Source: Candidatus Pacearchaeota archaeon (GTDB lineage: Archaea; Nanobdellota; Nanobdellia; Pacearchaeales; GW2011-AR1). Taken from it: a stretch of DNA of 64,000 bases. Below are positions 5,803 through 45,110 of this stretch, piece by piece (within the stretch, counting starts at the first letter, position 1; each line of letters opens with the position of its first letter). Both the position numbers and the translations under genes were made by a program. The notes beneath the pieces were generated by a model. It worked only from the letters and a program-made list of their open reading frames with translations, was not told the origin of the DNA and made no database searches. Location: the NCBI GenBank assembly GCA_018303825.1, contig JAGVXK010000021.1, positions 7,752 through 71,751 on the forward strand, read 5' to 3'.

Positions 5803-6216
5803 ATGCAGTTAAACATGCAGTTAATGAGATATATTAATCTTCTAGATAAGGTAACTGGAGTGAAAACCACCAGGTGTTTTTTTTATAATAACGCCATAAT
5901 CTTTGCTGTGCCTAAAGGTTTCATGGCGCAGGCGATAGGAAAAAATGCCAGCAACATTTATTATCTGCAGGAAAAAATGGGGAAGAGGGTAAGAATTGTT
6001 CAGGAATCAAATGGAACTGAAGATATAGAAAGATTTGTCAGAAGCATAATTGAACCTGCTCAATTTAAATCTATAGAAATAAAAGAAAATGAGCTGATAA
6101 TAACTGCGGGGAGTATGCAGAATAAAGCTAATCTGCTCGGAAGAAACAAGAAAAGATTCGAAGAACTGAAGGAAATCATAAGGGATGATTTCAGCCTTGA
6201 GTTAAAAGTAATGTAG
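5803..6216 (+). CDS. nusA: Archaeal NusA-like KH-domain protein
   Basis: 137 aa with two KH-like GxxG-type segments (AIGKNASNIYYLQEKMGKRVRIV). It sits in the conserved position after rpoA and before S12. Confidence 0.8.
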   Translation: MQLNMQLMRYINLLDKVTGVKTTRCFFYNNAIIFAVPKGFMAQAIGKNASNIYYLQEKMGKRVRIVQESNGTEDIERFVRSIIEPAQFKSIEIKENELIITAGSMQNKANLLGRNKKRFEELKEIIRDDFSLELKVM

Positions 6217-6479: not shown

Positions 6480-6902
6480 ATGGGATTAATGAATGCAAGA
6501 AAATTGATGAAAAACAGAAAGAAACATAGATGGAGCCAAAAAGCCCATAAAAAAAGAACTCTTAATCTTAAAATAAAATTCGATCCTCTGGAAGGGAGCT
6601 CGCAGGCAAAAGGAATAGTTATTTCAAAGTTTCAAAAAGAAGCAAGACAGCCTAACTCTGCAATGAGAAAATGCTGCAAAGTTCAGCTGATTAAGAATGG
6701 AATTTCTGTTGGGGCATTCATCCCGGGAAACCTTGCTCAGAAATTTATTGATGAGCACGATGAAGTTTTGATTGAAAGAATTGGCGGAAGAATGGGCCGT
6801 TCTCCGGGCGATATTCCTGGAATCAGATTCACAGTAATTAAAGTAAACGATCAGCCTTTGCATTTATTGTGGAAAGGCAAGATAGAAAAAGGTAGAAGAT
6901 AA
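6480..6902 (+). CDS. rps12: 30S ribosomal protein S12 (uS12)
   Basis: ..[40 protein letters not shown].. The conserved N-terminus MGLMNARKL begins at 6480. The ORF-track start at 6438 lies inside the duplicated upstream motif. Confidence 0.92.
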
Positions 6903-16975: not shown

Positions 16976-17569
16976 ATGAAAAAATCCCTTATTTTAATGG
17001 GCCTGGCACTATCATTTCTAATCCTAGCGGTCACTATGACATCAGCTTATACTAACTATCCAACTTACTACTCAAATAATTACAATAACTACTATTCGAA
17101 CACATATCCTACTTACTCGCAATCTGCAAGTGCCAATTCGGGCTCAAACTCCCAATACTTTAATTTTGGCCCTATAACAAGCAGGAATACGTATTATGAT
17201 TCAAAGTTTGCAAGCTCAAACTTTGACTCAACAGACTATGCCCTAGCCTATCAAGGTCCAATGGCATCAAGAGCAATAACTTATGATTCTTATTTAAAGA
17301 TAAAACCTTCTGGAAAAGTAATACAGACTGTATCTTATGCTGATAAATCAAACTTTGTTGGGGAAATAGCTTTAGAAACAGCTAACTCGCGAAATAGAAG
17401 AACCTCAGCTTCAGAAACGATAAAAACATCAACTGATAATTCCTGGAAGGGCTACACTTGGAGCAACAAAGAAGCATTTGACAACAGCAAATATTCGCAG
17501 AATTCTGGCTGGGATAATTACTATTATCGACCTGTTTTCTCAAACGGTTATTACAACTGGGACTGGTAA
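16976..17569 (+). CDS. Secreted Tyr/Asn/Ser-rich low-complexity protein
   Basis: A signal-peptide-like N-terminus (MKKSLILMGLALSFLILAVTMTSA) is followed by YTNYPTYYSNNYNNYYSNTYPTY.. repeats. Confidence 0.55.
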   Translation: MKKSLILMGLALSFLILAVTMTSAYTNYPTYYSNNYNNYYSNTYPTYSQSASANSGSNSQYFNFGPITSRNTYYDSKFASSNFDSTDYALAYQGPMASRAITYDSYLKIKPSGKVIQTVSYADKSNFVGEIALETANSRNRRTSASETIKTSTDNSWKGYTWSNKEAFDNSKYSQNSGWDNYYYRPVFSNGYYNWDW

Positions 17570-17620
17570 AAAATAGTTGGCACGTTAAGAAAGCCCCTCG
17601 TGTCTTGAATATTTGTTCGT

Positions 17621-17694
17621 GAATCTCTCTTCGAGTGGAATTGACGGCTATTTTAAGTTTGGATTTATGATTTGCGGTGGTGGGAAGGTGCGCT
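17621..17694 (-). repeat. Island repeat, inverted partial copy (arm A)
   Basis: Perfect reverse complements of blocks in copy B: 17681-17694 vs 18145-18158 (14 bp), 17661-17675 vs 18218-18232 (15 bp), 17639-17647 vs 18244-18252 (9 bp). Confidence 0.75.
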
Positions 17695-17701
17695 TTGTGC
17701 A

Positions 17702-18091
17702 TCAAATAGCTACTAATATACTCTCTTTTGCTCTGCTAGTCTCATCTGCAAATGGAACACCTCTCTTGTCATTATACCATCCATATGTTTCTACTTTAGC
17801 TCTTTGTTCTGCAAGTTTCTTTGCAATATCATGTGTTCTTTGCTCCACATTTTCACATTCATCGACTATTCCAATAACGCCATGCACATGTTCAATTCTA
17901 ACTTGCGCTCTATTTTCAAGTAACAAAATAACATATTTGCCATCAATTGGTTTTTCTGGAGTAGCAACTACTATCGTATTCCATACGTCATCTCTTAAAG
18001 GGTTAAAAAATTTAAAAGCAGATATATATTTATAGCCATCATTCCGTTCTGGTTTCCTTTCCTGCAAAACAATCCTTGGTCCGCTACCCAT
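17702..18091 (-). CDS. Hypothetical protein (129 aa) bracketed by inverted repeat arms
   Basis: Balanced, charged composition. The overlapping + strand ORF 17613..18035 is Ser/Cys/Leu-rich and starts inside the repeat. Confidence 0.55.
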   Translation of the reverse strand: MGSGPRIVLQERKPERNDGYKYISAFKFFNPLRDDVWNTIVVATPEKPIDGKYVILLLENRAQVRIEHVHGVIGIVDECENVEQRTHDIAKKLAEQRAKVETYGWYNDKRGVPFADETSRAKESILVAI

Positions 18092-18144
18092 CTTTAAACA
18101 ATATTCATCGCCCTTTTAATTATTTCTATATTGTAAAATATGTT

Positions 18145-18423
18145 AGCGCACCTTCCCATTTCTTATTCATCAATTATTTCGCGAAGCGACTATTTAGGGG
18201 CGGGTGGTCGGGGGAATGCAAATCATAAATCCGTTTAATATTTCCGTCAATTACGTTTAAGCGAGATTAAACTGTCTGCTTTCTGATTTGGGAAAGGGCT
18301 TAAGCGTAACGAGAAGAGAGATTGAGAATTATTTTCATTCTGAAAATAACTTCCTATTTAATTTATAATATTAAGAAGCAAATTTCAAGTTCATTTAATC
18401 GTTCAGGCTAAAAGAACTTTCAA
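18145..18423 (+). repeat. Island repeat copy 1, 5' half (B); candidate structured RNA or MITE-like element
   Basis: Hairpin tcgc-gaa-gcga at 18179-18189. G-rich block at 18197-18214. Hairpin cgtttaagc/gcttaagcg at 18254-18262/18298-18306. 28-nt block at 18396-18423 identical to 22758-22785. Confidence 0.7.
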
Positions 18424-18485
18424 CCAAAAGAAGACAAATCCGAAAAATATATATACCATGATTTATCACTATATTCAATTAACTC

Positions 18486-18509
18486 CATGAGATCTGTAAG
18501 GATCTCATG
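18486..18509 (+). promoter_or_regulatory. Perfect 9-bp inverted repeat catgagatc-tgtaag-gatctcatg just upstream of the NYN gene start
   Basis: 18486-18494 pairs with 18501-18509. It ends 9 nt before the ATG at 18518. Confidence 0.35.
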
Positions 18510-18517
18510 TTTTTTAT

Positions 18518-19066
18518 ATGAATTCCAAAAAAGAGAAGGTTGCGATTTACATCGATGGTAGTAATTTATATTTCTCAATAAAAGATACATTCAATTGTAA
18601 AATTGACTTAGAAAAATTCTGTAAAAAATTAGTGAATGATGATGATTTAGCGAAGATTAATTATTATATTGCTCCTGTTGAGCAATTAGAAAATCCTAAA
18701 GCATACGCTCAACAGCAATCATTCTTTGAAAAATTAAGGAAAATTGATAAACTAAATCTAATTTTTGGCAGGCTAGAAAAGAGAAAGAAAGATGGAGAAA
18801 TATACCATGTAGAAAAAGCAACAGATGTAAATCTTGCCCTTGATTTGGCTTTAGATGCACAAAAAGGGGAATATGATAAGGCTCTTCTTATCTCAAATGA
18901 TGGTGACTTTTCTGGAGCGGTAACTGCCGCAGTCAGTTTCAAAAGAAAAGTCATTTATATTGCCATAGGCACCAACAAATCTATATCTTATCATTTGAAG
19001 AAAGTGGCATCTGCAACCTTTCGAATTAATAAGGAATTCATTGATGAATGTAAATTGGATGAGTAG
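18518..19066 (+). CDS. NYN-domain (LabA/DUF88-like) protein
   Basis: VAIYIDGSNLYFS.. at the N-terminus and ..ALLISNDGDFSGAV.. match the NYN/LabA-type nuclease fold pattern. Confidence 0.75.
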   Translation: MNSKKEKVAIYIDGSNLYFSIKDTFNCKIDLEKFCKKLVNDDDLAKINYYIAPVEQLENPKAYAQQQSFFEKLRKIDKLNLIFGRLEKRKKDGEIYHVEKATDVNLALDLALDAQKGEYDKALLISNDGDFSGAVTAAVSFKRKVIYIAIGTNKSISYHLKKVASATFRINKEFIDECKLDE

Positions 19067-19144
19067 AGTTTTCGGCTATTAGTATATGGTGAAAGTTGGG
19101 TTAAATCTCGTTTCGAACTAAGAGAACAATTATGGAATAATTGA

Positions 19145-19326
19145 GAGATTTACCTTTTAGCAGAGATTAGGCGAGTCTGAAAGACCTCGAGCTACGAACT
19201 AAGAGTCTCGAGTTAGCTAAACCTCACAAGAATGGGCTCTTTGCGTAATTGCTGAGAATCTTATGTTCTTAGGGCATTTCATTTGTATCTGTCGGGGGCG
19301 CGTTTTTGCTTCTCGCAGAAAATCTC
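19145..19326 (+). repeat. Island repeat copy 1, 3' half (C)
   Basis: gagattaggcgag at 19163-19175 (identical to 22884-22896). ctcgag/ctcgag stem at 19186-19191/19207-19212. cgtaattg at 19244-19251. G-rich arm gtcgggggc.. at 19291-19326. Confidence 0.7.
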
Positions 19327-19409
19327 TGATTTTCTGAGCCATCAAGAACTTTGTTCTTGAGGTTTTCTGAAAAAGAAGATTTTTTATATGTTGTTTATTA
19401 TTAATATCT

Positions 19410-19727
19410 ATGACTTATGCAGTTTATACAACTGAGAGTTTTGATAAAGAGGTTGAGAAATTGTCTGGAGGAGACCGAGAGATAATTCAGAAAATGTTTT
19501 TTAAGATTAAAGACAATCCTTACGCCAGTAACCAATTAAGATACAAGAATCTTAGAGAGAAGCGAATTAGAGAAAAAAGAGTTTATTTTCTAGTTTATGA
19601 TGATTTGCGAGCAGTTCTTATTGTTGCTATAAGCGGTAAGAAAGACCAACAAGCAACAATCAATCATATAATCAATTACTTTGATGATTATAAAGAATAC
19701 TTGGAAAAATTGCTAGGAAAAGATTAA
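19410..19727 (+). CDS. relE: RelE/ParE-family toxin
   Basis: 105 aa. The pattern ..EKRIREKRVYFLVYDDLRAVLIVAISGKKDQ.. is typical of RelE/ParE mRNA-interferase toxins. Confidence 0.7.
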   Translation: MTYAVYTTESFDKEVEKLSGGDREIIQKMFFKIKDNPYASNQLRYKNLREKRIREKRVYFLVYDDLRAVLIVAISGKKDQQATINHIINYFDDYKEYLEKLLGKD

Positions 19728-19879
19728 GCAACCTGTCTTACTCTGCCAGCTTTAACATCTTCTAAACTTGCCTTGAACTGCCTTAATAAATCAAAGTCTA
19801 TCTTTTCTAGCTCTCTGAGCATAGCTACTTGAGCCTTCATCTTCTCGTATTCATCTTTTGGTACCTTTACCATTTCCAT
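19724..19879 (-). CDS. Small antitoxin-like protein (51 aa), convergent with and overlapping relE by 4 nt
   Basis: MEMVKVPKDEYEKMKAQVAMLRELEKIDFDLLRQFKASLEDVKAGRV resembles the C-terminal ..DIKAGRV helices of Phd/YefM-type antitoxins. Below the ORF-track cutoff. Confidence 0.4.
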   Translation of the reverse strand: MEMVKVPKDEYEKMKAQVAMLRELEKIDFDLLRQFKASLEDVKAGRVRQVA

Positions 19880-19936
19880 AAATATTTCTAAGAATCAAAG
19901 TTTTTAAGCTTTCTGGAAGTCACTTTTGCCCCCTTG

Positions 19937-20074
19937 TTATTGGTTAATTATCTCTATTTTGAGCTCTACTATCGTTCCCGGTTTTAGTCTCTCCTCTAAC
20001 AATTTAGGCATGATTATTATAGCTTGTTTGCCGTGCTTGGCGATTTTCTTGATTATTGTGAATTGAGTTGTCAT
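19937..20074 (-). CDS. AbrB/SpoVT-like small DNA-binding protein (45 aa)
   Basis: MTTQFTIIKKIAKHGKQAIIIMPKLLEERLKPGTIVELKIEIINQ follows the AbrB/MazE-type swapped-hairpin pattern (..G.s..v.iPk.l.e.l.l..G..v.i.i). Confidence 0.45.
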   Translation of the reverse strand: MTTQFTIIKKIAKHGKQAIIIMPKLLEERLKPGTIVELKIEIINQ

Positions 20075-20258
20075 CTTACTAATTTATAGATCTCATAAAT
20101 AGATACTCCTAAAATTGCATATCTTATTGCAATATTCTTTGCAAAATCCCAGAAAGGATTACCTAAGGGCGAGCCTAAAAATAAAGTATTAAACTTTATT
20201 CCAATAATCTATATTTTCCCACGAGATATCGTAGACAATTGTTTAAAAATTTACTAAC

Positions 20259-20429
20259 TTATTCTGCGGTGAGCCCTAAACTATCTTGATCTGGCAATGC
20301 ATCAGCATAGCAGTCATCTAACAATCTTTCATCAATTCTCTTCAAAGCCCTTCTTTCTCCAATAATTGGAATTGAATCTTTAACAAGTTCGACTAACGAA
20401 ATCTTTTTGTTATTTGCCTTCTCTTTCAT
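20259..20429 (-). CDS. Small hypothetical protein (56 aa), third gene of a minus-strand operon
   Basis: The ATG at 20429 lies 5 nt after the stop of 20435..21145. Translation: MKEKANNKKISLVELVKDSIPIIGERRALKRIDERLLDDCYADALPDQDSLGLTAE. Confidence 0.35.
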   Translation of the reverse strand: MKEKANNKKISLVELVKDSIPIIGERRALKRIDERLLDDCYADALPDQDSLGLTAE

Positions 20430-20434
20430 TTTTT

Positions 20435-21145
20435 CTAACCTCGTATTGAATCTTCTACAATTCTATTCACTTCTGAAAGTATGCGTTCCCTCGTTCTCTG
20501 ACCAAAAATCCTATGGATTAATGAACTATCGTCATAACTTTGTAAAACAAACTCAACATTTGGAGGAGATGTAAATTTCTTAAATCTTCTAAGGGGATAA
20601 ATAGTAGTAACTTTAACCACACAACCATTTTGTTCTCCACCATTTCTTCTTTCAAACAAATCTGTTTCTGCATTCTTTCCATATTCGTCTACTACTCGAT
20701 GGTCGTCTAATACTTGGAGGTATTGTAAATATGGAATTTGACCTTTAGGACAAACGTTTTTTGGTCTAAAACTAAAAGGTTCTTTGTTAATTTTATCTGC
20801 TACAAAGGTCAAGATGTCTTCGGGTGCCTTGAATAAATGTCTACCAAAATCCCTAAAATCTTGCCCTAAAATACCTATTTGAACGCCTTCCCTAGCAGAA
20901 AAACTATAATCTTTCTTTGTATCAAATTCTGTCCAAATATGCCCGCCTAGACTCTCTAAGTGCCCAGTACCATCCAGATGGTTTACAAGAAAAGCGGGCC
21001 AAGTTCCCTTATTGTAATATCCTACCTGACATCCTGTAATTCTTACATTGCCCATTCCATGCAAAAGGTACATTAAATGCTCTGGGCTAATACTATCAAA
21101 TATGGCACTGTTTTGTACTCTCTTATCATACTTTTGTTCAATCAT
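20435..21145 (-). CDS. Hypothetical protein (236 aa)
   Basis: Long ORF with normal composition. Its start overlaps the stop of the upstream gene (ATGA). His/Gly-rich segment HLDGTGHLESLGGHIW. No family recognised. Confidence 0.6.
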   Translation of the reverse strand: MIEQKYDKRVQNSAIFDSISPEHLMYLLHGMGNVRITGCQVGYYNKGTWPAFLVNHLDGTGHLESLGGHIWTEFDTKKDYSFSAREGVQIGILGQDFRDFGRHLFKAPEDILTFVADKINKEPFSFRPKNVCPKGQIPYLQYLQVLDDHRVVDEYGKNAETDLFERRNGGEQNGCVVKVTTIYPLRRFKKFTSPPNVEFVLQSYDDSSLIHRIFGQRTRERILSEVNRIVEDSIRG

Positions 21146-21723
21146 TTTCTTTCACCTCCGAATTTTTTCTGAAGAAAATCCAATGCTAGTTGCCTTTCTC
21201 TTTCTGATTCAAAAATAACAAGGGGCCTTGGCCAAGGTTTGTTACATTTTTTAATAAAAAATTCAAGCAGGGATTGATGAGAAGAAGCTAATAGATGATC
21301 AAACCCGCTAGGGGTTAAATCTGAGTAACCTGGTGTCATCGGGCGACCTATTTTGTCTGCGATAGAATTAACCTCATAGGGTCTTGGTGTGAATGATAAC
21401 GCATAAACCCTCAAACTATCTCCAAACCTACCTGTATTGACGTGCTGAATTAGGCATAATTGATCTCCCAAATAAAGATGCATTTGCATATCCATTTTAT
21501 CTCTTTCATCCGCATTACAATAAATACGCCCGCCAGGAACAACGGGTGATGCTCCGCATAGAGTTATTTCGCCAAACTGAGCAACCCTCTCTAAGTAAAT
21601 TGGACCCCCATCATTAAATCTCGGTGCACATAATGATAAGTTAACACTTCTCTCTCTACAAAAAATTGCGTTTGCCATTTCTTGATGGGCGTCTTTTCTT
21701 TCTATGTTTAATCTTATTCTCAT
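21142..21723 (-). CDS. Hypothetical protein (193 aa)
   Basis: First gene of the operon divergent from the TrmB-like gene at 21852. No family recognised. Confidence 0.6.
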   Translation of the reverse strand: MRIRLNIERKDAHQEMANAIFCRERSVNLSLCAPRFNDGGPIYLERVAQFGEITLCGASPVVPGGRIYCNADERDKMDMQMHLYLGDQLCLIQHVNTGRFGDSLRVYALSFTPRPYEVNSIADKIGRPMTPGYSDLTPSGFDHLLASSHQSLLEFFIKKCNKPWPRPLVIFESERERQLALDFLQKKFGGERK

Positions 21724-21851
21724 TTTCTATTTCTCCCAAGTTTATTTACTATCATAAGATAATGGCATAATAAAGTGTATTTAAATTATTGTTGTAAGGA
21801 AGCTATTAACAATTTAGAAAGAATTAAATATAACAATTCACTTGATTTTAT

Positions 21852-22565
21852 ATGGAAATAACTACACTCGAGAGTCTTGGAATGAACAAAACAGAGGCCA
21901 AAGTATATCTGGCTTTACTTGAATTGGGAGAAGTACAAGCAGGACAGATAAGTAAAAAATCAGGAGTTAATAGAACAAGCACGTATGATTCATTAGAAAG
22001 ACTAATATCGAAGGGTCTCGTTAAATATGTTATTCAATCAAATAAAAAGGTATTCGGGGCAGATAAACCCAATAAAATAGTTGAGCAATTAAAAGAACAG
22101 GAGAGAATAGCTAAGCAAATACTGCCAGAACTTAATAATTTGTTTAAAGAATCAAAAAAAGATGAGGAATCTGAGATCTATAAAGGCAGAAAAGGGATAA
22201 GGTCTATCTTGTTTGAAATAGTAAAATATAAAGAATATATTGCTTTTGGCTCAAAAGGCAAGTTTTTAGAGATAATGAAGCACGATTTTGAGATTTTTCA
22301 AAAAAGGAAGAAAAAATTAAAGATAAAAGCCAGAGTAATATTAAGAGAATCTGATAGGACTTCTGAATCTGTTAAGGTTGCTTATAGTGATTTTAAATTT
22401 GTTCCTGATGAATATGGATCTCCGACTACTACATTTGTTTATGGAAATAATATTGCCATAATTGTCTGGCTGTCTGAGCCAATCGCTACAGTAATAAAGA
22501 GTAAAGAGGTCGCTGAAAGCTATTCGCATTATTTTGAACTACTTTGGAAACTCGCAAAGCCCTAG
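21852..22565 (+). CDS. TrmB-family transcriptional regulator (paralog 1)
   Basis: The N-terminal winged helix LESLGMNKTEAKVYLALLELGEVQAGQISKKSGVNRTSTYDSLERLISKGLV is a typical TrmB HTH. Confidence 0.8.
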   Translation: MEITTLESLGMNKTEAKVYLALLELGEVQAGQISKKSGVNRTSTYDSLERLISKGLVKYVIQSNKKVFGADKPNKIVEQLKEQERIAKQILPELNNLFKESKKDEESEIYKGRKGIRSILFEIVKYKEYIAFGSKGKFLEIMKHDFEIFQKRKKKLKIKARVILRESDRTSESVKVAYSDFKFVPDEYGSPTTTFVYGNNIAIIVWLSEPIATVIKSKEVAESYSHYFELLWKLAKP

Positions 22566-23037
22566 ATGATACCTTCTTCGGCGTGAGCCGAAGCTCTCTG
22601 TGCGAAGCACCCAAGCCCCCGACCAATTTCTGTTTGACTGAAATGCCTACAATCAGCAATTTCGTTTAAGCTTGATTAAACCTTTGGATTTTTTGTTAGT
22701 GGCTTAAGCGGAGCAAAGAGCCAATTACTATTTTAAAGTTGAGGTTTACTTTTCGTCTAATCGTTCAGGCTAAAAGAACTTTCAAGGCAATTGTTAAAAG
22801 TCAAAATAATTGAAAGTTACAGAAAATTATGGTTTCCATAAAGGAAATACTTTAGGATAAAGTAAATAATTTTTCTTTTAGTGGAGATTAGGCGAGTCCA
22901 AAGGACCTCTTGGTGCGAATTAAGAGCCAAGAGTTAGTAAACCACAACGAAATATTTGCGAATAAGTGTAATTGCTGGCTATTTTGGTTTTGGGGCTGGC
23001 GAGGCGTTTTTCTAAGGGGCACTTTTTCCTAGTCTAA
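22566..23037 (+). repeat. Island repeat copy 2 (D), full length; candidate structured RNA or MITE-like element
   Basis: GNRA hairpin cttcggc-gtga-gccgaag at 22576-22593. gtgc-gaa-gcac at 22600-22610. C-rich block at 22611-22623. Hairpin at 22663-22671/22702-22710. 28-nt block at 22758-22785. gagattaggcgag at 22884-22896. Stem at 22907-22913/22927-22933. aattgctg at 22970-22977. G-rich arm at 22992-23027. Confidence 0.75.
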
Positions 23038-23544
23038 CTAGTTAATTAAAAACCTATAATAAGATGTAAGAAAATCCAAATTATCTTTAGGATTTATATT
23101 CATATTTCCCTCTCCTGTAAAAATAACCTTGTCCCTGAGAGGATATAATGGTGACGACCTAAACTCTACATATCCAACTCCCGCCACCCTAAACCATGGC
23201 TCAAAGTCATCATGACCACCCGTGGGCAAAATTATCCCATTTCTAATCTCACTCAAAATATGTACAATTTCTGATCTATCCCTCATTCTTGTCAATTTAG
23301 CAAAATTGAATTTTGTTATTGCATGTGCAACAAGCTTCCTATAAAACTCTGTGCCATACTCGTGATCTGAATTTGAATCGAAGTTCCTTCGACAAAAATG
23401 AAATTCCAGAGGATTTCCTTCAAAATTGGATGACTTAATCAAATTAAGACTATCTTCCAAAAACACGTCTAACGCATTCCGAATACACAACGGGTACTTA
23501 CCAACCCTTCTGAATATAAACGCGTCATCATATAACTTCTCCAT
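23038..23544 (-). CDS. Hypothetical protein (168 aa)
   Basis: Divergent from the TrmB-like gene at 23630. No family recognised. Confidence 0.6.
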   Translation of the reverse strand: MEKLYDDAFIFRRVGKYPLCIRNALDVFLEDSLNLIKSSNFEGNPLEFHFCRRNFDSNSDHEYGTEFYRKLVAHAITKFNFAKLTRMRDRSEIVHILSEIRNGIILPTGGHDDFEPWFRVAGVGYVEFRSSPLYPLRDKVIFTGEGNMNINPKDNLDFLTSYYRFLIN

Positions 23545-23629
23545 GAACTCTCTGTCTTGCCTAGTCTTTTAAATCTTAGTTGTTATTATTAATAACAACA
23601 TTTAAATAATCACTACAATAAAACTAATA

Positions 23630-24337
23630 ATGGAAGAACTCATAGAAAATTTAAAAATGGCCGGTCTAACTGGAAATGAATCAAAAGTTTACGTAGGTCT
23701 AATTAAGATTGGAGAAACTTCAGCCAACGAATTAGCAAAAAATCTGAGTTTAGACAGAACATTAACATATACTATTCTAAACCATTTAATAGAAAAGGGA
23801 ATGGTTGGCTATGTTATCAAAGCAAATAAAAAGTTCTTCTCGGCATCTGAACCACAAAACCTATTAAATAAAATAAAAAAAGATGAAACAGCGATAAAAA
23901 GAGTGATAGAAACTTTAAAAACAATGAAAACAACAAACGAGCCCTCCCCGAAAGTGAATGTTTATGATGGGAAAGAGGGACTCAGAACATTCTTAAGGCT
24001 TCTGACAAAAGATAAGAAGATTTCTGCATTTGGAGCGACAGGCAGATTATATGACTCTCTCTTCGAAACAGAAGCCATCGCAAAAGAATTAAAAAAAACA
24101 TTATCTGCTAGAATTATTGCTAGTAATAAATATCGCACCCATCCAATTAGGAAAATAAAGAGAATTGAAGTAAGATATTTAGATGTGGACAACGAGGCAA
24201 CAACAACCATTTTCGGAGATTATATTGCCCTACATCTTTTAACAGATAAACCATTCATAATAACAATCAAGAACAAAGAAATTGCGCATGGTTATCTAAA
24301 CTATTTCAATCTTCTCTGGAAAATCGCCAAGAAATAA
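23630..24337 (+). CDS. TrmB-family transcriptional regulator (paralog 2)
   Basis: LKMAGLTGNESKVYVGLIKIGETSANELAKNLSLDRTLTYTILNHLIEKGMV. Its C-terminus ..YLNYFNLLWKIAKK parallels ..YSHYFELLWKLAKP of paralog 1. Confidence 0.8.
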   Translation: MEELIENLKMAGLTGNESKVYVGLIKIGETSANELAKNLSLDRTLTYTILNHLIEKGMVGYVIKANKKFFSASEPQNLLNKIKKDETAIKRVIETLKTMKTTNEPSPKVNVYDGKEGLRTFLRLLTKDKKISAFGATGRLYDSLFETEAIAKELKKTLSARIIASNKYRTHPIRKIKRIEVRYLDVDNEATTTIFGDYIALHLLTDKPFIITIKNKEIAHGYLNYFNLLWKIAKK

Positions 24338-24797
24338 TCTGAAAAAGTGCCCCGTTCTGCTGTTTGATAATTATTGTTCGTATTTTCGCCAACAGGCGAC
24401 TATCTGTGCGTAGCACCACCGAGCCAGCCCCTATCGAACTTCCAGCAATTTTGTTTAAACTAGATTAAACGCTCTGCGTCTGATTTCTGAAAATGGTTTA
24501 AACGAAACGAATGAGCAAATCCCTAAAGAGGTTTACTTATCGTTTAATCGTTCGTAATAAGAGTGGTTTTAGCCATTAATACTTAAATCGTATGAGCTAA
24601 AACTAAGACTAAATTCCGTCTTTCTACTAAAGAAAGTATTTCAGGATGAAATAAGGAATTTATCTCTTATGTGAGATTAGCCGACCACTTTAGTAGCGCG
24701 AGCTGATTACGAAAATCCTCGCGACTTTTGCTTTGTTCTCAGCCGATTTCGAAGCGTAATTGCCAAGATTTATAAAGTAGTAGATTTTATTTAGATT
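24338..24797 (+). repeat. Island repeat copy 3 (E), near full length
   Basis: aaaaagtgcccc at 24342-24353. Hairpin tcgcc-aaca-ggcga at 24386-24399. gtgc-gta-gcac at 24406-24416. gccagcccc at 24423-24431. Hairpin gtttaaac/gtttaaac at 24453-24460/24496-24503. gagattagccgac at 24673-24685. Stem cgcgag/ctcgcg at 24697-24702/24718-24723. aattgc at 24758-24763. Confidence 0.75.
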
Positions 24798-25085
24798 ATG
24801 GGTTGGAAAAACTGGAGTTATTGGTTGAGAGGAGGTTTTTTGCTAGCAACGATTTACTTTATTTATACTTTACTTATAAATCAATTATATGGGACAGTTA
24901 TAAAAGCAGGATTATATCGCATATTATATGAGGTCGGATATCCCTTCAATTTTGTACGGTTTTTGGTTATGGGCTTTAATGAATCATTCATAGCCATAAT
25001 TTTCAGTTGGATAATTGCATATATTGTCTTTTTCCTTCTTGGAGCAATAATTGGTTGGATCGTTGGTAAAATAAAATCTAAGTAA
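24798..25085 (+). CDS. Small membrane protein (95 aa)
   Basis: Three hydrophobic segments. Flanked on both sides by island repeat copies. Confidence 0.55.
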   Translation: MGWKNWSYWLRGGFLLATIYFIYTLLINQLYGTVIKAGLYRILYEVGYPFNFVRFLVMGFNESFIAIIFSWIIAYIVFFLLGAIIGWIVGKIKSK

Positions 25086-25100
25086 TTCTTTTTTGAATAA

Positions 25101-25367
25101 TTGGCAATTTCGTTTAAGCAAGCTATTGTGCGACATCTCTGATTCGCACCCAGCGGTTAAGCGGAGCGAGAAATTAACGGGCTGAGAATTGCAAGCCGAA
25201 AGGGGCAAGAGTTTACAGGCAATATTCTATTTGTTACTATGGAAACTCTGAAGGGGAAGGGGCTTTCTTTTTCTTGAGGGGATTTGCAACCCGAGCGATA
25301 GCGAAGGGCAAAGCAAAAGTTTGGTTAATCATACTTAAACGAACATTAAGAATGAAAAAGAAAGGAT
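25101..25367 (+). repeat. Island repeat copy 4 (F), partial and rearranged
   Basis: ggcaatttcgtttaagc at 25103-25119, with the 3' arm ggttaagcggagcgag at 25155-25170. The inner stem gtgcga../..tcgcac replaces the usual loop. Further fragments are gagtttac and cttaaacgaac. Confidence 0.55.
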
Positions 25368-41908: not shown

Positions 41909-43234
41909 TCATATTTCGCAATGATCTCCTAAATTATATAATCCAGAAATCTCAGCTACAGTCAAGCTCCTACTCCATATCTTTACCTCATCTATAACTC
42001 CATCAAAATAATGACCTTCTTCGTTTACCTGGGCCGCATAATATCTCCCGATAATAAATTCCTGGCCACTCGCAGTATTTATGTTAACATTTCCATTTGA
42101 AGGAGAGCCGCCATTCACAGCATTGACATAAACATCAAAATCAGTCAATCCTATGCCCTTCCTTGTTATGACAACATGATTCCAGGCATTTATAGTCATT
42201 TTCCCCAATCCAGAAGTTGCCAATTCAGAACCAGCACAATCAACGCTTAAATCTATTCGTCCAGTATCGTGAGTATAAACAGACCATCCATTTTCACAAA
42301 CCCAGCTGCCATATCTTGAACCAGAGATGATTCCATTATATCCTGAAAAACTAGTAGGGTAAGCCCAAAAACTAATTGTAAAGTTGTTCTTAGCAAAATC
42401 AAACTCATTGCTATCAATTATTGAAACATAATCATTAATTCCATCAAATCTCAATGCTGAACCAGTACCAACCTGGCAAGTTTCATAACCTATCCCTCCC
42501 TGTAAAGCCCCATCATTATTTCCAACCTGATCAAATGCATTATCATCAAAATTCCAATAGGAAATAAATGAATTCTTATATTCACAATAACTAGTTGTTG
42601 ACCCTGGATTAATGCAACTGTCTTGCGTGTTGAGATTGCCATCCGTGCAATTAGAATCAACTGTGCAAATTATACTTGGTGGAATAGGTGGGCTGGGCGG
42701 ACTAATGGTCCCCTCATCTCCTCTTACTGTATAAATATATTCATTCTTTCCTTGCAATTCAAGCCCATCTTTATTATACACAAATGGAACAACACTTACT
42801 CTTCTAAGCAATCCAAGACCCGAACTAGAATAATCTATATTCTTTATTGTAGTTTGCAATTCATTAAGTGATTCGTTATATCTAAATGGCACTTTCTTCC
42901 CATTTATATCTTCTAGAACTATAACAAAGGCAGCCATATTTCCTGCTCCTTGTTCTCTCTTTATAGCTAGTGTTAAATTTCCCTGTGTTTCATTTAACCT
43001 AACAGATTCTCTTGGTATTGTCAATGAAGTTGTAAATATACTTGAATCTATCTGGCTTCCTGCCTTGTATAATGTATTTCTAAGAAAAGCCCATATCAAT
43101 ATAATTGCGGCCAATACAATCAATATAATTAAGATAACTGTAATTATATCGCTCAAACCTTTTCTAGCAACACCTCTTTTAGCCATTAAGAATAAAGAAT
43201 AAATAGGTTTAAAATACTTTTTATAAAACTTCAA
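41909..43234 (-). CDS. Archaeal type IV pilin-like N-terminus fused to a LamG/concanavalin-like domain (paralog 1)
   Basis: Class III signal-like RKGLSDIITVILIILIVLAAIILIW, with C-terminal LRFDGINDYVSI..ISFWAYP..DEVKIWSRSLTVAEISGLY. Confidence 0.75.
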   Translation of the reverse strand: MKFYKKYFKPIYSLFLMAKRGVARKGLSDIITVILIILIVLAAIILIWAFLRNTLYKAGSQIDSSIFTTSLTIPRESVRLNETQGNLTLAIKREQGAGNMAAFVIVLEDINGKKVPFRYNESLNELQTTIKNIDYSSSGLGLLRRVSVVPFVYNKDGLELQGKNEYIYTVRGDEGTISPPSPPIPPSIICTVDSNCTDGNLNTQDSCINPGSTTSYCEYKNSFISYWNFDDNAFDQVGNNDGALQGGIGYETCQVGTGSALRFDGINDYVSIIDSNEFDFAKNNFTISFWAYPTSFSGYNGIISGSRYGSWVCENGWSVYTHDTGRIDLSVDCAGSELATSGLGKMTINAWNHVVITRKGIGLTDFDVYVNAVNGGSPSNGNVNINTASGQEFIIGRYYAAQVNEEGHYFDGVIDEVKIWSRSLTVAEISGLYNLGDHCEI

Positions 43235-43436
43235 ACACCCAATCTTTGTTCATATCTTGCCCAGCATATTCTATTTTGCCAGGTGAGGCTCCTATTTTTC
43301 TGGAAAGCATATGTATAATCACATTTGCAGAATCATCATCTTGCTCAAAAGGAAGGTAAAGAAGATACTTATTACCTCCAAAATTCTCAAAATATTCTTT
43401 TGATGTATTGAACTTGACTTTTACAACTACTTTCAT
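43221..43436 (-). CDS. DUF167 (YggU)-like small protein (paralog 1)
   Basis: MKVVVKVKFNTSKEYFENFGGNKYLLYLPFEQDDDSANVIIHMLSRKIG.. fits the DUF167 pattern (V.VkPnskk ... dGkAN..li..Lsk.lgv). Confidence 0.5.
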   Translation of the reverse strand: MKVVVKVKFNTSKEYFENFGGNKYLLYLPFEQDDDSANVIIHMLSRKIGASPGKIEYAGQDMNKDWVFEVL

Positions 43437-43443
43437 CTTTTAG

Positions 43444-43524
43444 TTATCTCCCACATGATTTAAACCATCTTATAATATTTGGTTCCTTATTTAATTCTAT
43501 GCCCAAACTTACATTCCCAGTCAT
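43444..43524 (-). pseudogene. Truncated copy of the 82-aa membrane-protein gene (only the C-terminal motif retained)
   Basis: MTGNVSLGIELNKEPNIIRWFKSCGR parallels MTGNVSLNIELNREPAIVRWFKAFKS at the end of 45372..45620. The upstream frame is open but has no start and is closed by TAG. Confidence 0.45.
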
Positions 43525-43585
43525 TTTCTTCGCAACATAACATATTAAAATCAAAAAGACAATGTGGTCTTCGTCTTTTGGATGT

Positions 43586-43617
43586 TCAAGATACTACTCT
43601 GCATTCAAGTATCTTGA
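43586..43617 (-). other. Perfect 10-bp stem hairpin 9 nt downstream of the pilin-LamG paralog 2 stop
   Basis: tcaagatact (43586-43595) pairs with agtatcttga (43608-43617) around a 12-nt loop. No oligo-U tract follows on the minus strand. Confidence 0.35.
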
Positions 43618-43625
43618 CATAAGGA

Positions 43626-45110
43626 TTATCCGCAATTATTATTTAACTGGCAGGCATATAAACCATTAATTTCCTGCTGTGAAAGATTTCTATTCCATAT
43701 CATTACTTCGTCTATTGTTCCATTAAAAACAACCTCTGGATAAGGGAAGATTCTCTTCAATGCGCCTATTGAAATATGACTTGGGTCACCATTTACCCCA
43801 AAGCTATCCGCTGCCCAATCACTTTGTGCCCCTGAGCCGCATGGATAATTATTGAATGTAACTGTTTTTTCCACATTATCCAAAAATACCCTTATCTTAT
43901 TTATTCCATCAGCCATAAAAACAACAAAATGCCAACTTCCATTATTAACTTCAGCATCTGTGAAAAAGTGGCTCCAGCATCCTACTCCATTTATTTGATA
44001 TTCGATAGTTAAATTCCCATTTGATACAAACCATGCATAATGGCCCCTCCAATTAAATATTTGATTTCCATATCCAATAATTATTCCGGAAGTAGATGAA
44101 TTTGTCTTTATCCAGGCAGCAATAGTCCCTGATTGGGTGGTATCTAAAAGATCATCTGAATTGGTAATAGCGTAATCATCCAGCCCATCAAAATCGATTG
44201 CTTTTCCATAACCGTTTCTACCAGAAGAATAAATTGGCATCCCGCCATAAAATGTTCCATGATAATTGTTACCCGAGCTATCTAGAGTGTTGTCTTCCAT
44301 TTTATAATAAGCTATCAATCCGCCTGCTGGAACAACAAATTGGAATGTCTGATTATTGGCACTTGCATTCACAGATTCTCCGATTGAAGCATTCTTAGCT
44401 CTTATATGATAATATTGCTGTGTTAAGGGCAACAAACCAAAATGTGCATACGAAACAATATTATTTGGAAGATCTATCAACAAAGAATATGGACCGTTGA
44501 CATTGCCGGAATTCTCTAAAACATATCCTTCTTCATTTGAAACATCATTCCAGGTCAAATTAATGCTATCATAGGAAAGAGTGCTTGCTTTAAAATTGGC
44601 AGGAGGATTTATTGTTGGGACTGGAGGTGGTGCGATAATTCCCTGCCCAGAAGAGGAAATTGTATAGCAATCTTCCTGTTTTCCCTGCAATTCCCTCCCC
44701 TCTTTATTCAAAACAAAAGGGACAACACAAACCTTTGTTAAATTCATCAATCCAGAACTATAAGAGATAGTTTTTCCAATTGTCTGCAATTCTTGCAGAG
44801 ATTCGTTATATCTAAATGCCTTTTTATTCCCCTTAATGTCTTCTAAGACAATAATAAAAGCGCTCATTGTTCCAATCCCTTCCTGCCTCTTGACAACTAA
44901 TGATATATCTGTGCTATTTACCTTTACAGATTCTTCAGGAACTGTCAATCTTGTTGTAAATACAGAAGCATCTACCTGACTTCCAGATTTAGAAATATTA
45001 TACTTGAAGAATGCCCATATTAAAATGATCAAAGCCAAGGCAAGAAGTATAATTAAGATAGTGGTAATTATCGCGCTTATCCCTTTTTTGTTCACCATCC
45101 TTTTATTCAT
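43626..45110 (-). CDS. Archaeal type IV pilin-like N-terminus + FN3-like + LamG domain protein (paralog 2)
   Basis: NKKGISAIITTILIILLALALIILIW, then an FN3-like segment (PPANFKASTLSYDSINLTWNDVSNEEGYVLE), then IDFDGLDDYAI..DEVMIWNRNLSQQEINGLY. Confidence 0.75.
   Translation of the reverse strand: MNKRMVNKKGISAIITTILIILLALALIILIWAFFKYNISKSGSQVDASVFTTRLTVPEESVKVNSTDISLVVKRQEGIGTMSAFIIVLEDIKGNKKAFRYNESLQELQTIGKTISYSSGLMNLTKVCVVPFVLNKEGRELQGKQEDCYTISSSGQGIIAPPPVPTINPPANFKASTLSYDSINLTWNDVSNEEGYVLENSGNVNGPYSLLIDLPNNIVSYAHFGLLPLTQQYYHIRAKNASIGESVNASANNQTFQFVVPAGGLIAYYKMEDNTLDSSGNNYHGTFYGGMPIYSSGRNGYGKAIDFDGLDDYAITNSDDLLDTTQSGTIAAWIKTNSSTSGIIIGYGNQIFNWRGHYAWFVSNGNLTIEYQINGVGCWSHFFTDAEVNNGSWHFVVFMADGINKIRVFLDNVEKTVTFNNYPCGSGAQSDWAADSFGVNGDPSHISIGALKRIFPYPEVVFNGTIDEVMIWNRNLSQQEINGLYACQLNNNCG

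Follow-up and report, generated by a model that had tools for sequence, protein, structure and literature searches.

The described systems closest to the element reported here are integron cassette arrays and the ornate large RNAs. Integron arrays, including those of archaea (PMC9668308), place co-oriented, strand-specifically folded, mosaic repeats between small accessory genes, carry toxin–antitoxin and restriction–modification cargo, and keep an invariant short core inside a helix, while GOLLD, ROOL and OLE (PMC12286853) share with the element their size, complexity, rich covariation and association with mobile or accessory DNA. The stretch of DNA analyzed here (64,000 nt of Candidatus Pacearchaeota archaeon contig JAGVXK010000021.1; hereafter, the window) includes, at positions 18092–19409, a 182-aa open reading frame (ORF) with an NYN domain, set between two halves of a repeated element. 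With a probability of roughly 0.45, we take this region to be one copy of a structured repeat that marks cassette boundaries in an accessory-gene array of the Pacearchaeota/Woesearchaeota type. By analogy, in its working the element would come closest to an integron cassette array to which a second, nested cargo site has been added, and in appearance to the ornate large RNAs.

The element differs from each of these systems, and from several others, in specific ways. An attC site is one imperfect hairpin of 55–141 nt with R''/L''–L'/R' boxes and GTTRRRY, whereas the element is 330–450 nt long, with at least eight helices and TAATC/GATTA; measured against the description of attC, assignment as an attC site was rejected on length, helix number, and core box. 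Unlike integrons, the arrays of the element have no IntI among the genes found, hold genes of both orientations with their own promoters, carry cargo inside the repeat, and show pairing between the tail of one copy and the leader of the next. Group I introns with homing-endonuclease ORFs also hold a gene in a terminal loop that leaves a conserved multi-helix fold undisturbed, but the element has no host gene, exons or Rfam match, is arrayed, and carries self-promoted NYN or toxin–antitoxin cargo. The pdif (Xer) modules of Acinetobacter plasmids are alike in topology only (serial modules, often toxin–antitoxin, between inversely oriented sites); pdif sites are 28-bp duplex protein-binding sites, whereas the flanks of the element are long, folded, and covarying. 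BOX, ERIC, and REPIN/BIME sequences are likewise modular, mosaic, foldable intergenic repeats, some bacterial ones of which take internal insertions, but they are much shorter and dispersed, with neither multi-helix covariation nor genes in loops. GOLLD, ROOL, and OLE have no sequence or model match to the element, which is archaeal, occurs in multi-copy arrays, and holds protein genes in its loops. Flank complementarity also encloses kilobases in archaeal pre-rRNA stems and joins separate halves in Nanoarchaeum split tRNA genes, but these use bulge-helix-bulge motifs, which are not enriched at the cargo junctions of the element.

How the DPANN archaea, whose genomes are tiny, acquire accessory genes and shuffle them is poorly understood. 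The fold would be among the largest conserved archaeal folds outside rRNA, RNase P, and introns, and it is unusual for its arrays, its protein genes within two loops, and the complementarity that links neighboring copies. If it is a recombination substrate, the integron principle would extend to a much larger site, in a lineage without the integron integrase; if it is an RNA, it would represent a new class of ornate RNA with a readable genetic context.

The first-pass annotation described this region as one element copy split by an ORF inside a domain closed by a long-range helix, and comparison with other copies supports that description. Its coordinates match the sequence (caattacg 18248–18255, cgtaattg 19244–19251, ORF 18518–19066), and the blocks upstream and downstream of the ORF, termed B and C, are two halves of one copy, being adjacent stretches in the window copies D and E (BLAST, MAFFT) and in 16 further DPANN copies. 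Three helices enclose the ORF: P5 (18415–18425 / 19088–19097), P4 (18406–18414 / 19154–19161), and P3 (18396–18400 / 19165–19169), with P4 and P5 around the ORF backed by compensatory changes. In D and E, P5 is a 9–10 bp hairpin with a loop of ∼24 nt. Homologous loci with and without an ORF between the modules both occur: 18 of the 28 distinct paired copies are contiguous (gap of 16–28 nt), the other 10 hold 488–658 nt in the P5 loop, and copies split by NYN recur in L038 and L048 (L numbers designate the collected loci). What had been taken for an 85–110 nt spacer joining the modules of D and E includes the conserved P5 and P6, and the join is the P5 terminal loop, which measures 17–28 nt in the 18 contiguous copies. 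The proposed closing helix caattacg/cgtaattg stands in its CAATT/AATTG portion, which is invariant across copies, but not in its 8-bp version, as ACG is better paired within P2; by our arithmetic, an 8-mer and its complement 1 kb apart are expected ∼2 times by chance (426 × 343 / 4^8).

Copies were collected by scanning species-representative genomes with the motif CAATTNNGTTTAARCNNGATTAAAC and metagenomes with a relaxed motif, and afterwards with nhmmer profiles of both halves. The motif identified six genome loci, from Nanoarchaeota, Woesearchaeota, and Pacearchaeota metagenome-assembled genomes and one "Deltaproteobacteria" contig, and the relaxed motif identified 30 metagenome loci. With the half-profiles, several co-oriented copies were found per locus, separated by 0.4–3.4 kb of genes; co-orientation of this kind would be expected of an integron array, but the genes between copies lie on both strands, several with their own transcription factor B recognition element and TATA box (BRE/TATA). 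Among their products are toxin–antitoxin pairs, membrane and secreted proteins, and an NgoPII restriction–modification set; no recombinase was identified. The element is confined to Pacearchaeota/Woesearchaeota contigs among the loci found, and its arrays lie in accessory-gene islands. The "Deltaproteobacteria" locus, L003 (MGPL01000001.1, "Deltaproteobacteria bacterium GWA2_55_10"), is probably a misbinned DPANN contig, because it is identical to metagenome locus L041 over 1,152 bp and carries an archaeal-type TrmB gene along with the 5' module of the element. Nine viral-contig matches to the short motif all lacked CAATT or any other module and were set aside as chance. With blastn, copy D matched nothing in the collections of phages and plasmids. 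Of the Rfam 15 models, those that reach the gathering score in the window are limited to three tRNAs, and nothing relevant was obtained over 17400–25000 even at E ≤ 10. No description of the element was found in the literature searched.

The fold was predicted with RNAalifold from 25 non-redundant full copies, aligned with the cargo taken out where present, using nhmmer profiles, MAFFT, and our own pair counts. Judged from this alignment, the element is ∼330–450 nt long, with at least eight predicted helices (P1–P8). P1 (CAATT/AATTG), which is without covariation, is plausible as a helix. P2 comprises 11–12 bp (TTnnGTTTAARC / GYTTAARCGnAA) with an inner hairpin and the invariant GATTAAAC, and its extension, TTACG/CGTAA, covaries and takes up the ACG of the 8-mer discussed above. 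Variable hairpins separate P2 from P3, which is TAATC/GATTA (UAAUC/GAUUA) in every copy; because P3 never varies, the case for it is one of conservation. Covariation is seen in P4, P5, and P6, where a column can show as many as four types of pair. P6 is a three-way junction with the loops ACGAA and AGGAU, P7 is a small hairpin whose loops are GNRA-like, and conservation extends to several unpaired motifs.

Compensatory changes occur in 24 of the 38 predicted pairs of the P3–P6 domain (24 copies, alignment A3), where 93.9% of cells are paired as compared with 76.8 ± 0.9% in shuffles (0/500); this value drops to 31–49% when the partners are slid by 1–3 columns. In P2, our tally of wobble pairs is ∼27 G·U and 3 A·C, which argues that the + strand folds. 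Within one genome, the mean column identity among copies is just 50–60%, with pairs kept via compensatory changes, and therefore long-term selection on the fold is indicated, rather than recent transposition. A pairing switch between GATTAAAC and GTTTAATC was considered by eye; the variants of the two motifs are correlated, not complementary.

The P5 loop holds several kinds of cargo. In addition to NYN (window, L038), these are a PBECR2-like nuclease with DUF2283 (L004, L035, L040, L045), DUF4258 with DUF2283 (L006, L021), and ParE with a partner gene (L020). Cargo genes are co-oriented with the element in eight of nine loci, most P5 cargoes have a recognizable BRE/TATA, and several look leaderless. 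The cargo leaves the fold intact, because P5, P4, and P3 can still close around it, and the enclosing helices are 92% paired in cargo-bearing copies vs. 96.5% in empty copies. The insertion point is precise, in the middle of the loop, judged against the empty, almost identical loops of L005 and L026. In the window, the order of the cargo is CCGAAAA and a TATA-like box (18440–18456), a hairpin in the 5' untranslated region (5'-UTR), the ORF, and TTTTCGG (19069–19075), the last of which is complementary to the CCGAAAA at the other cargo end; these ends are conserved in L038, L021, L020, and L048.

Neighboring copies are linked by complementarity between the tail of one and the leader of the next. 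The mean duplex energy of a tail with the next leader is −33.4 kcal/mol, vs. −23.4 with its own leader (Mann–Whitney p = 5e-4) and −24.4 ± 7.0 kcal/mol for random tail–leader pairs, and the duplexes of the C tail with the D leader and of the D tail with the E leader reach −44.9 and −46.8 kcal/mol, respectively. The end of the D tail, GGGGCACTTTTTC (23018–23031), is the reverse complement of the start of the E leader, GAAAAAGTGCCCC (24341–24353). This complementarity occurs in blocks, which are broken by G-rich tracts on both sides. One tail/leader pair (90–97% identical) flanks unrelated genes in the window, in L026 (97 aa, +), and in L016 (116 aa, +), so a gene and its flanks are not always inherited together. 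TrmB-like winged-helix genes (235–250 aa) end just upstream of a leader in the window (twice), L001, L003/L041, L030, and L035, and truncated remnants in L017 (137–457) and L029 (35–406) keep the C-terminal end beside the leader; to judge from this arrangement, the TrmB-like gene and the leader appear to be inherited together. G-tracts such as GGGGCGGGTGGTCGGGGG, GGGTTTGGGATGGTGGG, and GGGTGGGGG occur in tails and leaders alike, on one and the same strand, in genomes of ∼33% GC (window 18188–18206 and 17674–17690; tails in L016, L023, L030, L005, and L043). Within the tail–leader complementarity they stand opposite one another, and they could form G-quadruplexes.

Copies of the element are mosaics, with breakpoints at conserved anchors. 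At right ends, a 5' module is followed by a short terminal module made up of TAATCA, a small hairpin that covaries, a strongly conserved hairpin rich in GC (…GTTCGGCGCTTCGCGCCTCAC…), a P1b-like CTATTG, and GGCTATTTTTT, so that these modules close with the GC hairpin and then GGCTATTTTTT. Left ends are truncated exactly at P3a in L005 and L021. L005 is a single unit in which P3a to the 3' half and tail, a nitrilase-like gene, and the leader, 5' half, and terminal module follow one another, and it runs exactly from P3a to the next TAATCA. Starting 6 nt before TAATC, L016 and L017 share 99.8% identity, whereas their upstream sequences are unrelated. Blocks of high identity end at P3a (3), the P5 loop (2), P3b (3), P2 (3), P1b (1), and P1a (1); a single crossover point is thus partly supported by these alignments, in which the breakpoints favor TAATC but hit other anchors too. 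A run of at least five T residues lies within 110 nt of the tail in 18 of 30 tails, against a background of 34%.

The GC-rich hairpin GTTCGGCGCTTCGCGCCTCAC of the terminal module, near-invariant and with a T-run, was observed in L002, L004, L017, L021, L023, L024, L038, L040, L043, and L048. Four of these (L002, L024, L038, and L048) have, as the next gene, a putative RsmB/NOP2-type RNA methyltransferase, an annotation confirmed by Pfam in L048 only and assigned by similar N-terminal sequences in L002, L024, and L038; this shared neighbor hints at a preferred chromosomal position of the array.

What we observe is the family with its fold and its arrays, where the cargo sits, the complementarity of tails and leaders, and the mosaic make-up of copies; from these we infer transcription, a mechanism of recombination, and a purpose for the fold. 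At somewhat less than even odds, the element would be a folded, probably transcribed cassette boundary with recombining anchors and cargo-tolerant loops. Transcription of the + strand of each copy would give a folded RNA ending at its G-rich tail and T-run; a transcribed RNA is suggested by the strand specificity of the fold, by the GNRA-like loops, and by the T-runs. The anchors CAATT/AATTG, GTTTAA…, TAATC/GATTA, and GTAATTG would be the places at which copies recombine, with the consequent gain, loss, and shuffling of whole cassettes and loop cargo. Other features suggest recombination of DNA, namely the arrangement in arrays, the mosaic copies with their variable cargo, a P3 that never varies, truncation at P3a, and the pattern in which tails match the next leader. 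The P5 loop would serve as the cargo site for small RNase-type modules (NYN, toxin–antitoxin pairs), and the loop from a tail to the next leader as a second site, for larger accessory genes.

Several observations weigh against this proposal. The signs of transcription are solely the T-runs and the strand-specific wobble pairs, and the excess of G·U is weak outside P2 (91 G·U vs. 46 A·C over all pairs). P1 and P3 are invariant, hence uninformative for covariation, and could equally be protein or recombinase sites. Breakpoints at conserved anchors are also expected from ordinary homologous recombination, and a tail that is complementary to the next leader, whichever way the intervening genes point, is awkward within one RNA and better fits a DNA history. 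The loci were collected by the element's own motif, which biases the frequency of arrays upward. No recombinase was identified in or next to any array, with flanking ORFs mostly judged by eye, not Pfam-scanned, and the sole Phage_integrase ORF of the window (56186–57439) lies 31 kb from the array, beside a tRNA.

The main rival is an integron-like platform of folded DNA, which we consider possible but unlikely. Circles with one element would integrate site-specifically at or just 5' of TAATC (P3a), the unit would run from P3a through the 3' half and tail, across the gene(s), to the leader and 5' half, and the fold would be a single-stranded DNA recombination substrate, as the attC sites of integrons and the attP site of CTXphi are. 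The pairing of a tail with the next leader is exactly the trace that would be left if circles with one intact element integrated, the two flanks of a gene then coming from one circular unit. The solo unit of L005 (P3a to TAATCA), the left end of the L021 array at P3a, the breakpoints of both L016/L017 and L026/window-B at TAATC, and the invariance of P3 while neighboring helices covary are also consistent with it, and the toxin–antitoxin, NgoPII restriction–modification, and membrane or secreted cassettes resemble those of archaeal integrons (PMC9668308). However, no integrase lies near any array, and no attachment site left empty, meaning a Z module that lacks a 5' module, was found in the collected loci. 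Furthermore, the element is 3–6 times the length of attC, P2, P6, P7, and P8 would have no role in a simple hairpin site, breakpoints occur at other anchors too, the same flanks carry different genes, and the T-runs after tails together with the GNRA-like loops favor an RNA.

The identity of the gene in the window's P5 loop, first annotated as NYN/LabA-like, is borne out by a match to Pfam PF01936 (69 bits against a curated cut-off of 24.2; E = 7.9e-19) and to the LabA-like structure PDB 2QIP (E = 5e-5). NYN is a member of the PIN-like nuclease fold. At E ≤ 1e-10 there are 650 homologs; the best 120 of the 650 are 65–93% identical and nearly all ∼180 aa long, and the named ones among these 120 are from the same archaeal groups. 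Four genomes were retrieved by the NYN protein alone (L046/47, L048, L049/50, and L051/52). In L048, the order 5' module–NYN–3' module occurs inside an array, independently of the DNA motif; no module lies within ±6 kb of NYN in the other three, which rules out that NYN always resides in the element. NYN adjoins modules in L021, L004, and L020. A type III toxin–antitoxin system was considered for this locus and rejected, as there are no tandem short repeats upstream of NYN, and its flanks are two halves of a single large fold.

The perfect 9-bp hairpin described before the ORF is present at 18486–18509 (CATGAGATC / GATCTCATG, 6-nt loop). A hairpin 7–10 nt before the NYN start, with compensatory changes, is found in the window, L021, L004, L020, L046, L048, L049, and L051, including the arms ATGAGATC/GATCTCAT, ATAGAATC/GATTCTAT, GTAGAATC/GATTCTAC, and ATAGGATC/GATCCTAT. 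It is kept inside and outside elements alike, and it probably serves the NYN gene as a cis-regulatory signal, perhaps one through which the RNase regulates its own gene. In L049, a perfect 31-bp direct repeat, AATATTATAGTATTGGGAAACATATAATAAA (∼5843–5873 and ∼6561–6591), flanks the NYN module, and in L046 an 11–12 bp direct repeat, GTTTCATATTC, surrounds the gene, which suggests that the NYN module is a discrete mobile unit. NYN is therefore a separate gene module that is often in P5 but independent of it, and it is probably mobile. The first-pass annotation had offered two alternatives, of which a passenger gene fits better and an ORF belonging to a structured RNA fits worse, because the NYN module brings a BRE/TATA promoter and a 5'-UTR hairpin of its own and is found without the element in three related genomes, and because unrelated toxin–antitoxin modules occupy this loop in other copies.

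These data also bear on whether NYN could be the element's own enzyme, with the NYN copy autonomous and the empty copies non-autonomous, in the manner of intron homing endonucleases or of transposases and MITEs (miniature transposable elements with inverted repeats). Such an enzyme might be expected from the nuclease fold, the high conservation of the protein, the 31-bp repeat around the L049 module, the position of NYN in that one loop in three or more independent copies (window, L038, and L048), and the proximity to modules in L021, L004, and L020. We nevertheless consider this improbable, given the three of four NYN-anchored genomes without a module nearby, the unrelated toxin–antitoxin modules in the same loop, and the many arrays in the sampled loci that lack NYN. 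A MITE-like, non-autonomous transposon with terminal inverted repeats and passenger genes is less probable again: both kinds of cargo are flanked by inverted repeats and the element is multi-copy and intergenic, but the 50–60% column identity with compensatory pairs does not indicate recent transposition, no target-site duplication surrounds the cargo in the four copies tested (P5 helix sequence aside), no transposase turned up, and the copies lie together in a single co-oriented array. A self-splicing group I/II or archaeal bulge-helix-bulge intron with the ORF as its cargo is largely refuted, for although the ORF sits in a peripheral loop of a multi-helix RNA as intron-encoded homing endonucleases do, and group I introns occur in these archaea (PMC6125680), there is no Rfam match even at E ≤ 10, the copies are intergenic and arrayed with neither host gene nor reverse transcriptase, and bulge-helix-bulge motifs number 0.89 per cargo junction vs. 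0.86 in mismatched controls, at inconsistent positions, with a finder that recovers the tRNA intron of the window (57592–57719). The intron, MITE, and chance explanations were thus rejected by the tests above.

A more speculative possibility, which we regard as doubtful, is a gene-capture system that operates without the integron integrase. Circular cassettes with one folded element would integrate and excise at TAATC, the nested P5 site would hold RNase-type addiction modules that stabilize the array, and the ∼400-nt fold would double as recombination substrate and transcribed insulator.

The window, archaeal DNA of low GC content, has genes for RNA polymerase subunits, EF-2, aIF2-gamma, S6e, and gyrase, and the array occupies 17578–25347 with six module blocks, in the order A, a 129-aa gene, B, the NYN cargo, C, seven genes, D, two genes, E, a 95-aa gene, F, and gyrA. 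The first-pass annotation had not recognized A as a 3' end fragment, the sixth block F, the array, or the pairing of tails with the next leader. Profiles built exclusively from non-window loci place the 5' module at 18217–18425 (E = 1e-39), 22649–22786, 24429–24573, and 25088–25347 (E = 6e-14), and the 3' module at 17584–17658 (a fragment), 19089–19266 (E = 1e-29), 22810–22989, and 24596–24772, with both modules back to back in D and E.

Block A (17578–17698, +) is a 3'-terminal fragment of the element that forms the left array end, and comprises a P8 remnant, P1b (GTGGAATTG, 17635–17643, +), and a G-rich tail. Its match to the non-window profile (17584–17658) covers model positions 108–181 (E = 5e-11), the fragment is 96–97% identical to tails in L026 and L016, and its tail is the reverse complement of the B leader. 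Between this tail and that leader lies the 129-aa gene (17702–18091, −), which has no Pfam match.

Block B (18143–18425, +), the 5' half of the split copy, consists of a leader with a G-rich tract, P1a (CAATT, 18248–18252), P2 (18251–18262 / 18298–18309) with the conserved GATTAAAC at 18265–18272, variable hairpins, P3a (TAATC, 18396–18400), P4a (18406–18414), and P5a (18415–18425). The NYN gene module fills the 662-nt terminal loop of P5 (18426–19087, +). Block C (19088–19307, +), the 3' half, continues with P5b (19088–19097), the P6 three-way junction, P4b (19154–19161), P3b (GATTAG, 19165–19170), P7 (GTCTGAAAGAC, 19175–19185), P8 (CTCGAG/CTCGAG, 19186–19212), and P1b (GCGTAATTG, 19243–19251), and its tail ends in GGGGGCGCG-TTTTT, with the T5 run at 19303–19307.

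Seven genes on 19410–22565 separate the C tail from the D leader; the last of these alone has a Pfam match, to a TrmB-like protein (21852–22565, +), and ends 14 nt before D. Block D (22579–23031, +) is a contiguous copy, with P1a at 22657–22661, P3a at 22758–22762, the P5 loop at 22786–22809, P3b at 22886–22891, P1b at 22966–22974, and T5 runs at 23007–23011 and 23023–23027. Two divergent genes follow between its tail and the E leader (23038–24337), namely a 168-aa gene (−) and a second TrmB-like gene (23630–24337, +), which ends 3 nt before E. Block E (24341–24775, +) is also contiguous, with a short tail, and carries compensatory variants in P2 (GTTTAAAC/GTTTAAAC), P4 (ATAAGAG/CTCTTAT), and P5 (GTTTTAGC/GCTAAAAC). 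Block F (25088–25347, +), a terminal 5' module only, forms the right array end with P1a (25105–25109), P2, and a long variable region. Its end reads GGTTAATCA|TACTTAAACG and abuts the 3' end of gyrA, and its terminal motif is present in at least 12 other loci.

Two sets of genes from other arrays are also described here. One inter-element cassette of L030 (3985–6325) encodes an NgoPII endonuclease (Pfam, E = 7.5e-87) along with a cytosine methyltransferase and a Vsr-type repair nuclease, both recognized by eye from N-terminal sequences, and appears to be a complete restriction–modification set. A family of ∼300-aa proteins without a Pfam match is encoded divergently beside class-2 leaders in L004 (3975–4832), L021 (5731–6738 and 7692–8615), L045 (5575–6525), and L029 (2585–3025); by eye, the N-terminus of these proteins is phosphoribosyltransferase-like, and their C-terminal membrane anchor carries the motif NITGNAIANL.

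Elsewhere in the window, the Phage_integrase-family ORF (56186–57439, −; E = 4e-7) adjoins an intron-bearing tRNA (57592–57719, −), whose 55-nt intron has a canonical bulge-helix-bulge motif. The ORF and tRNA may together represent an integrated element, and this site seems unrelated to the array 31 kb away. Lastly, two tandem paralogous genes at 41909–45110 (−) encode large secreted or surface proteins (441 and 494 aa) and share repeats with 70% identity over 300 nt.

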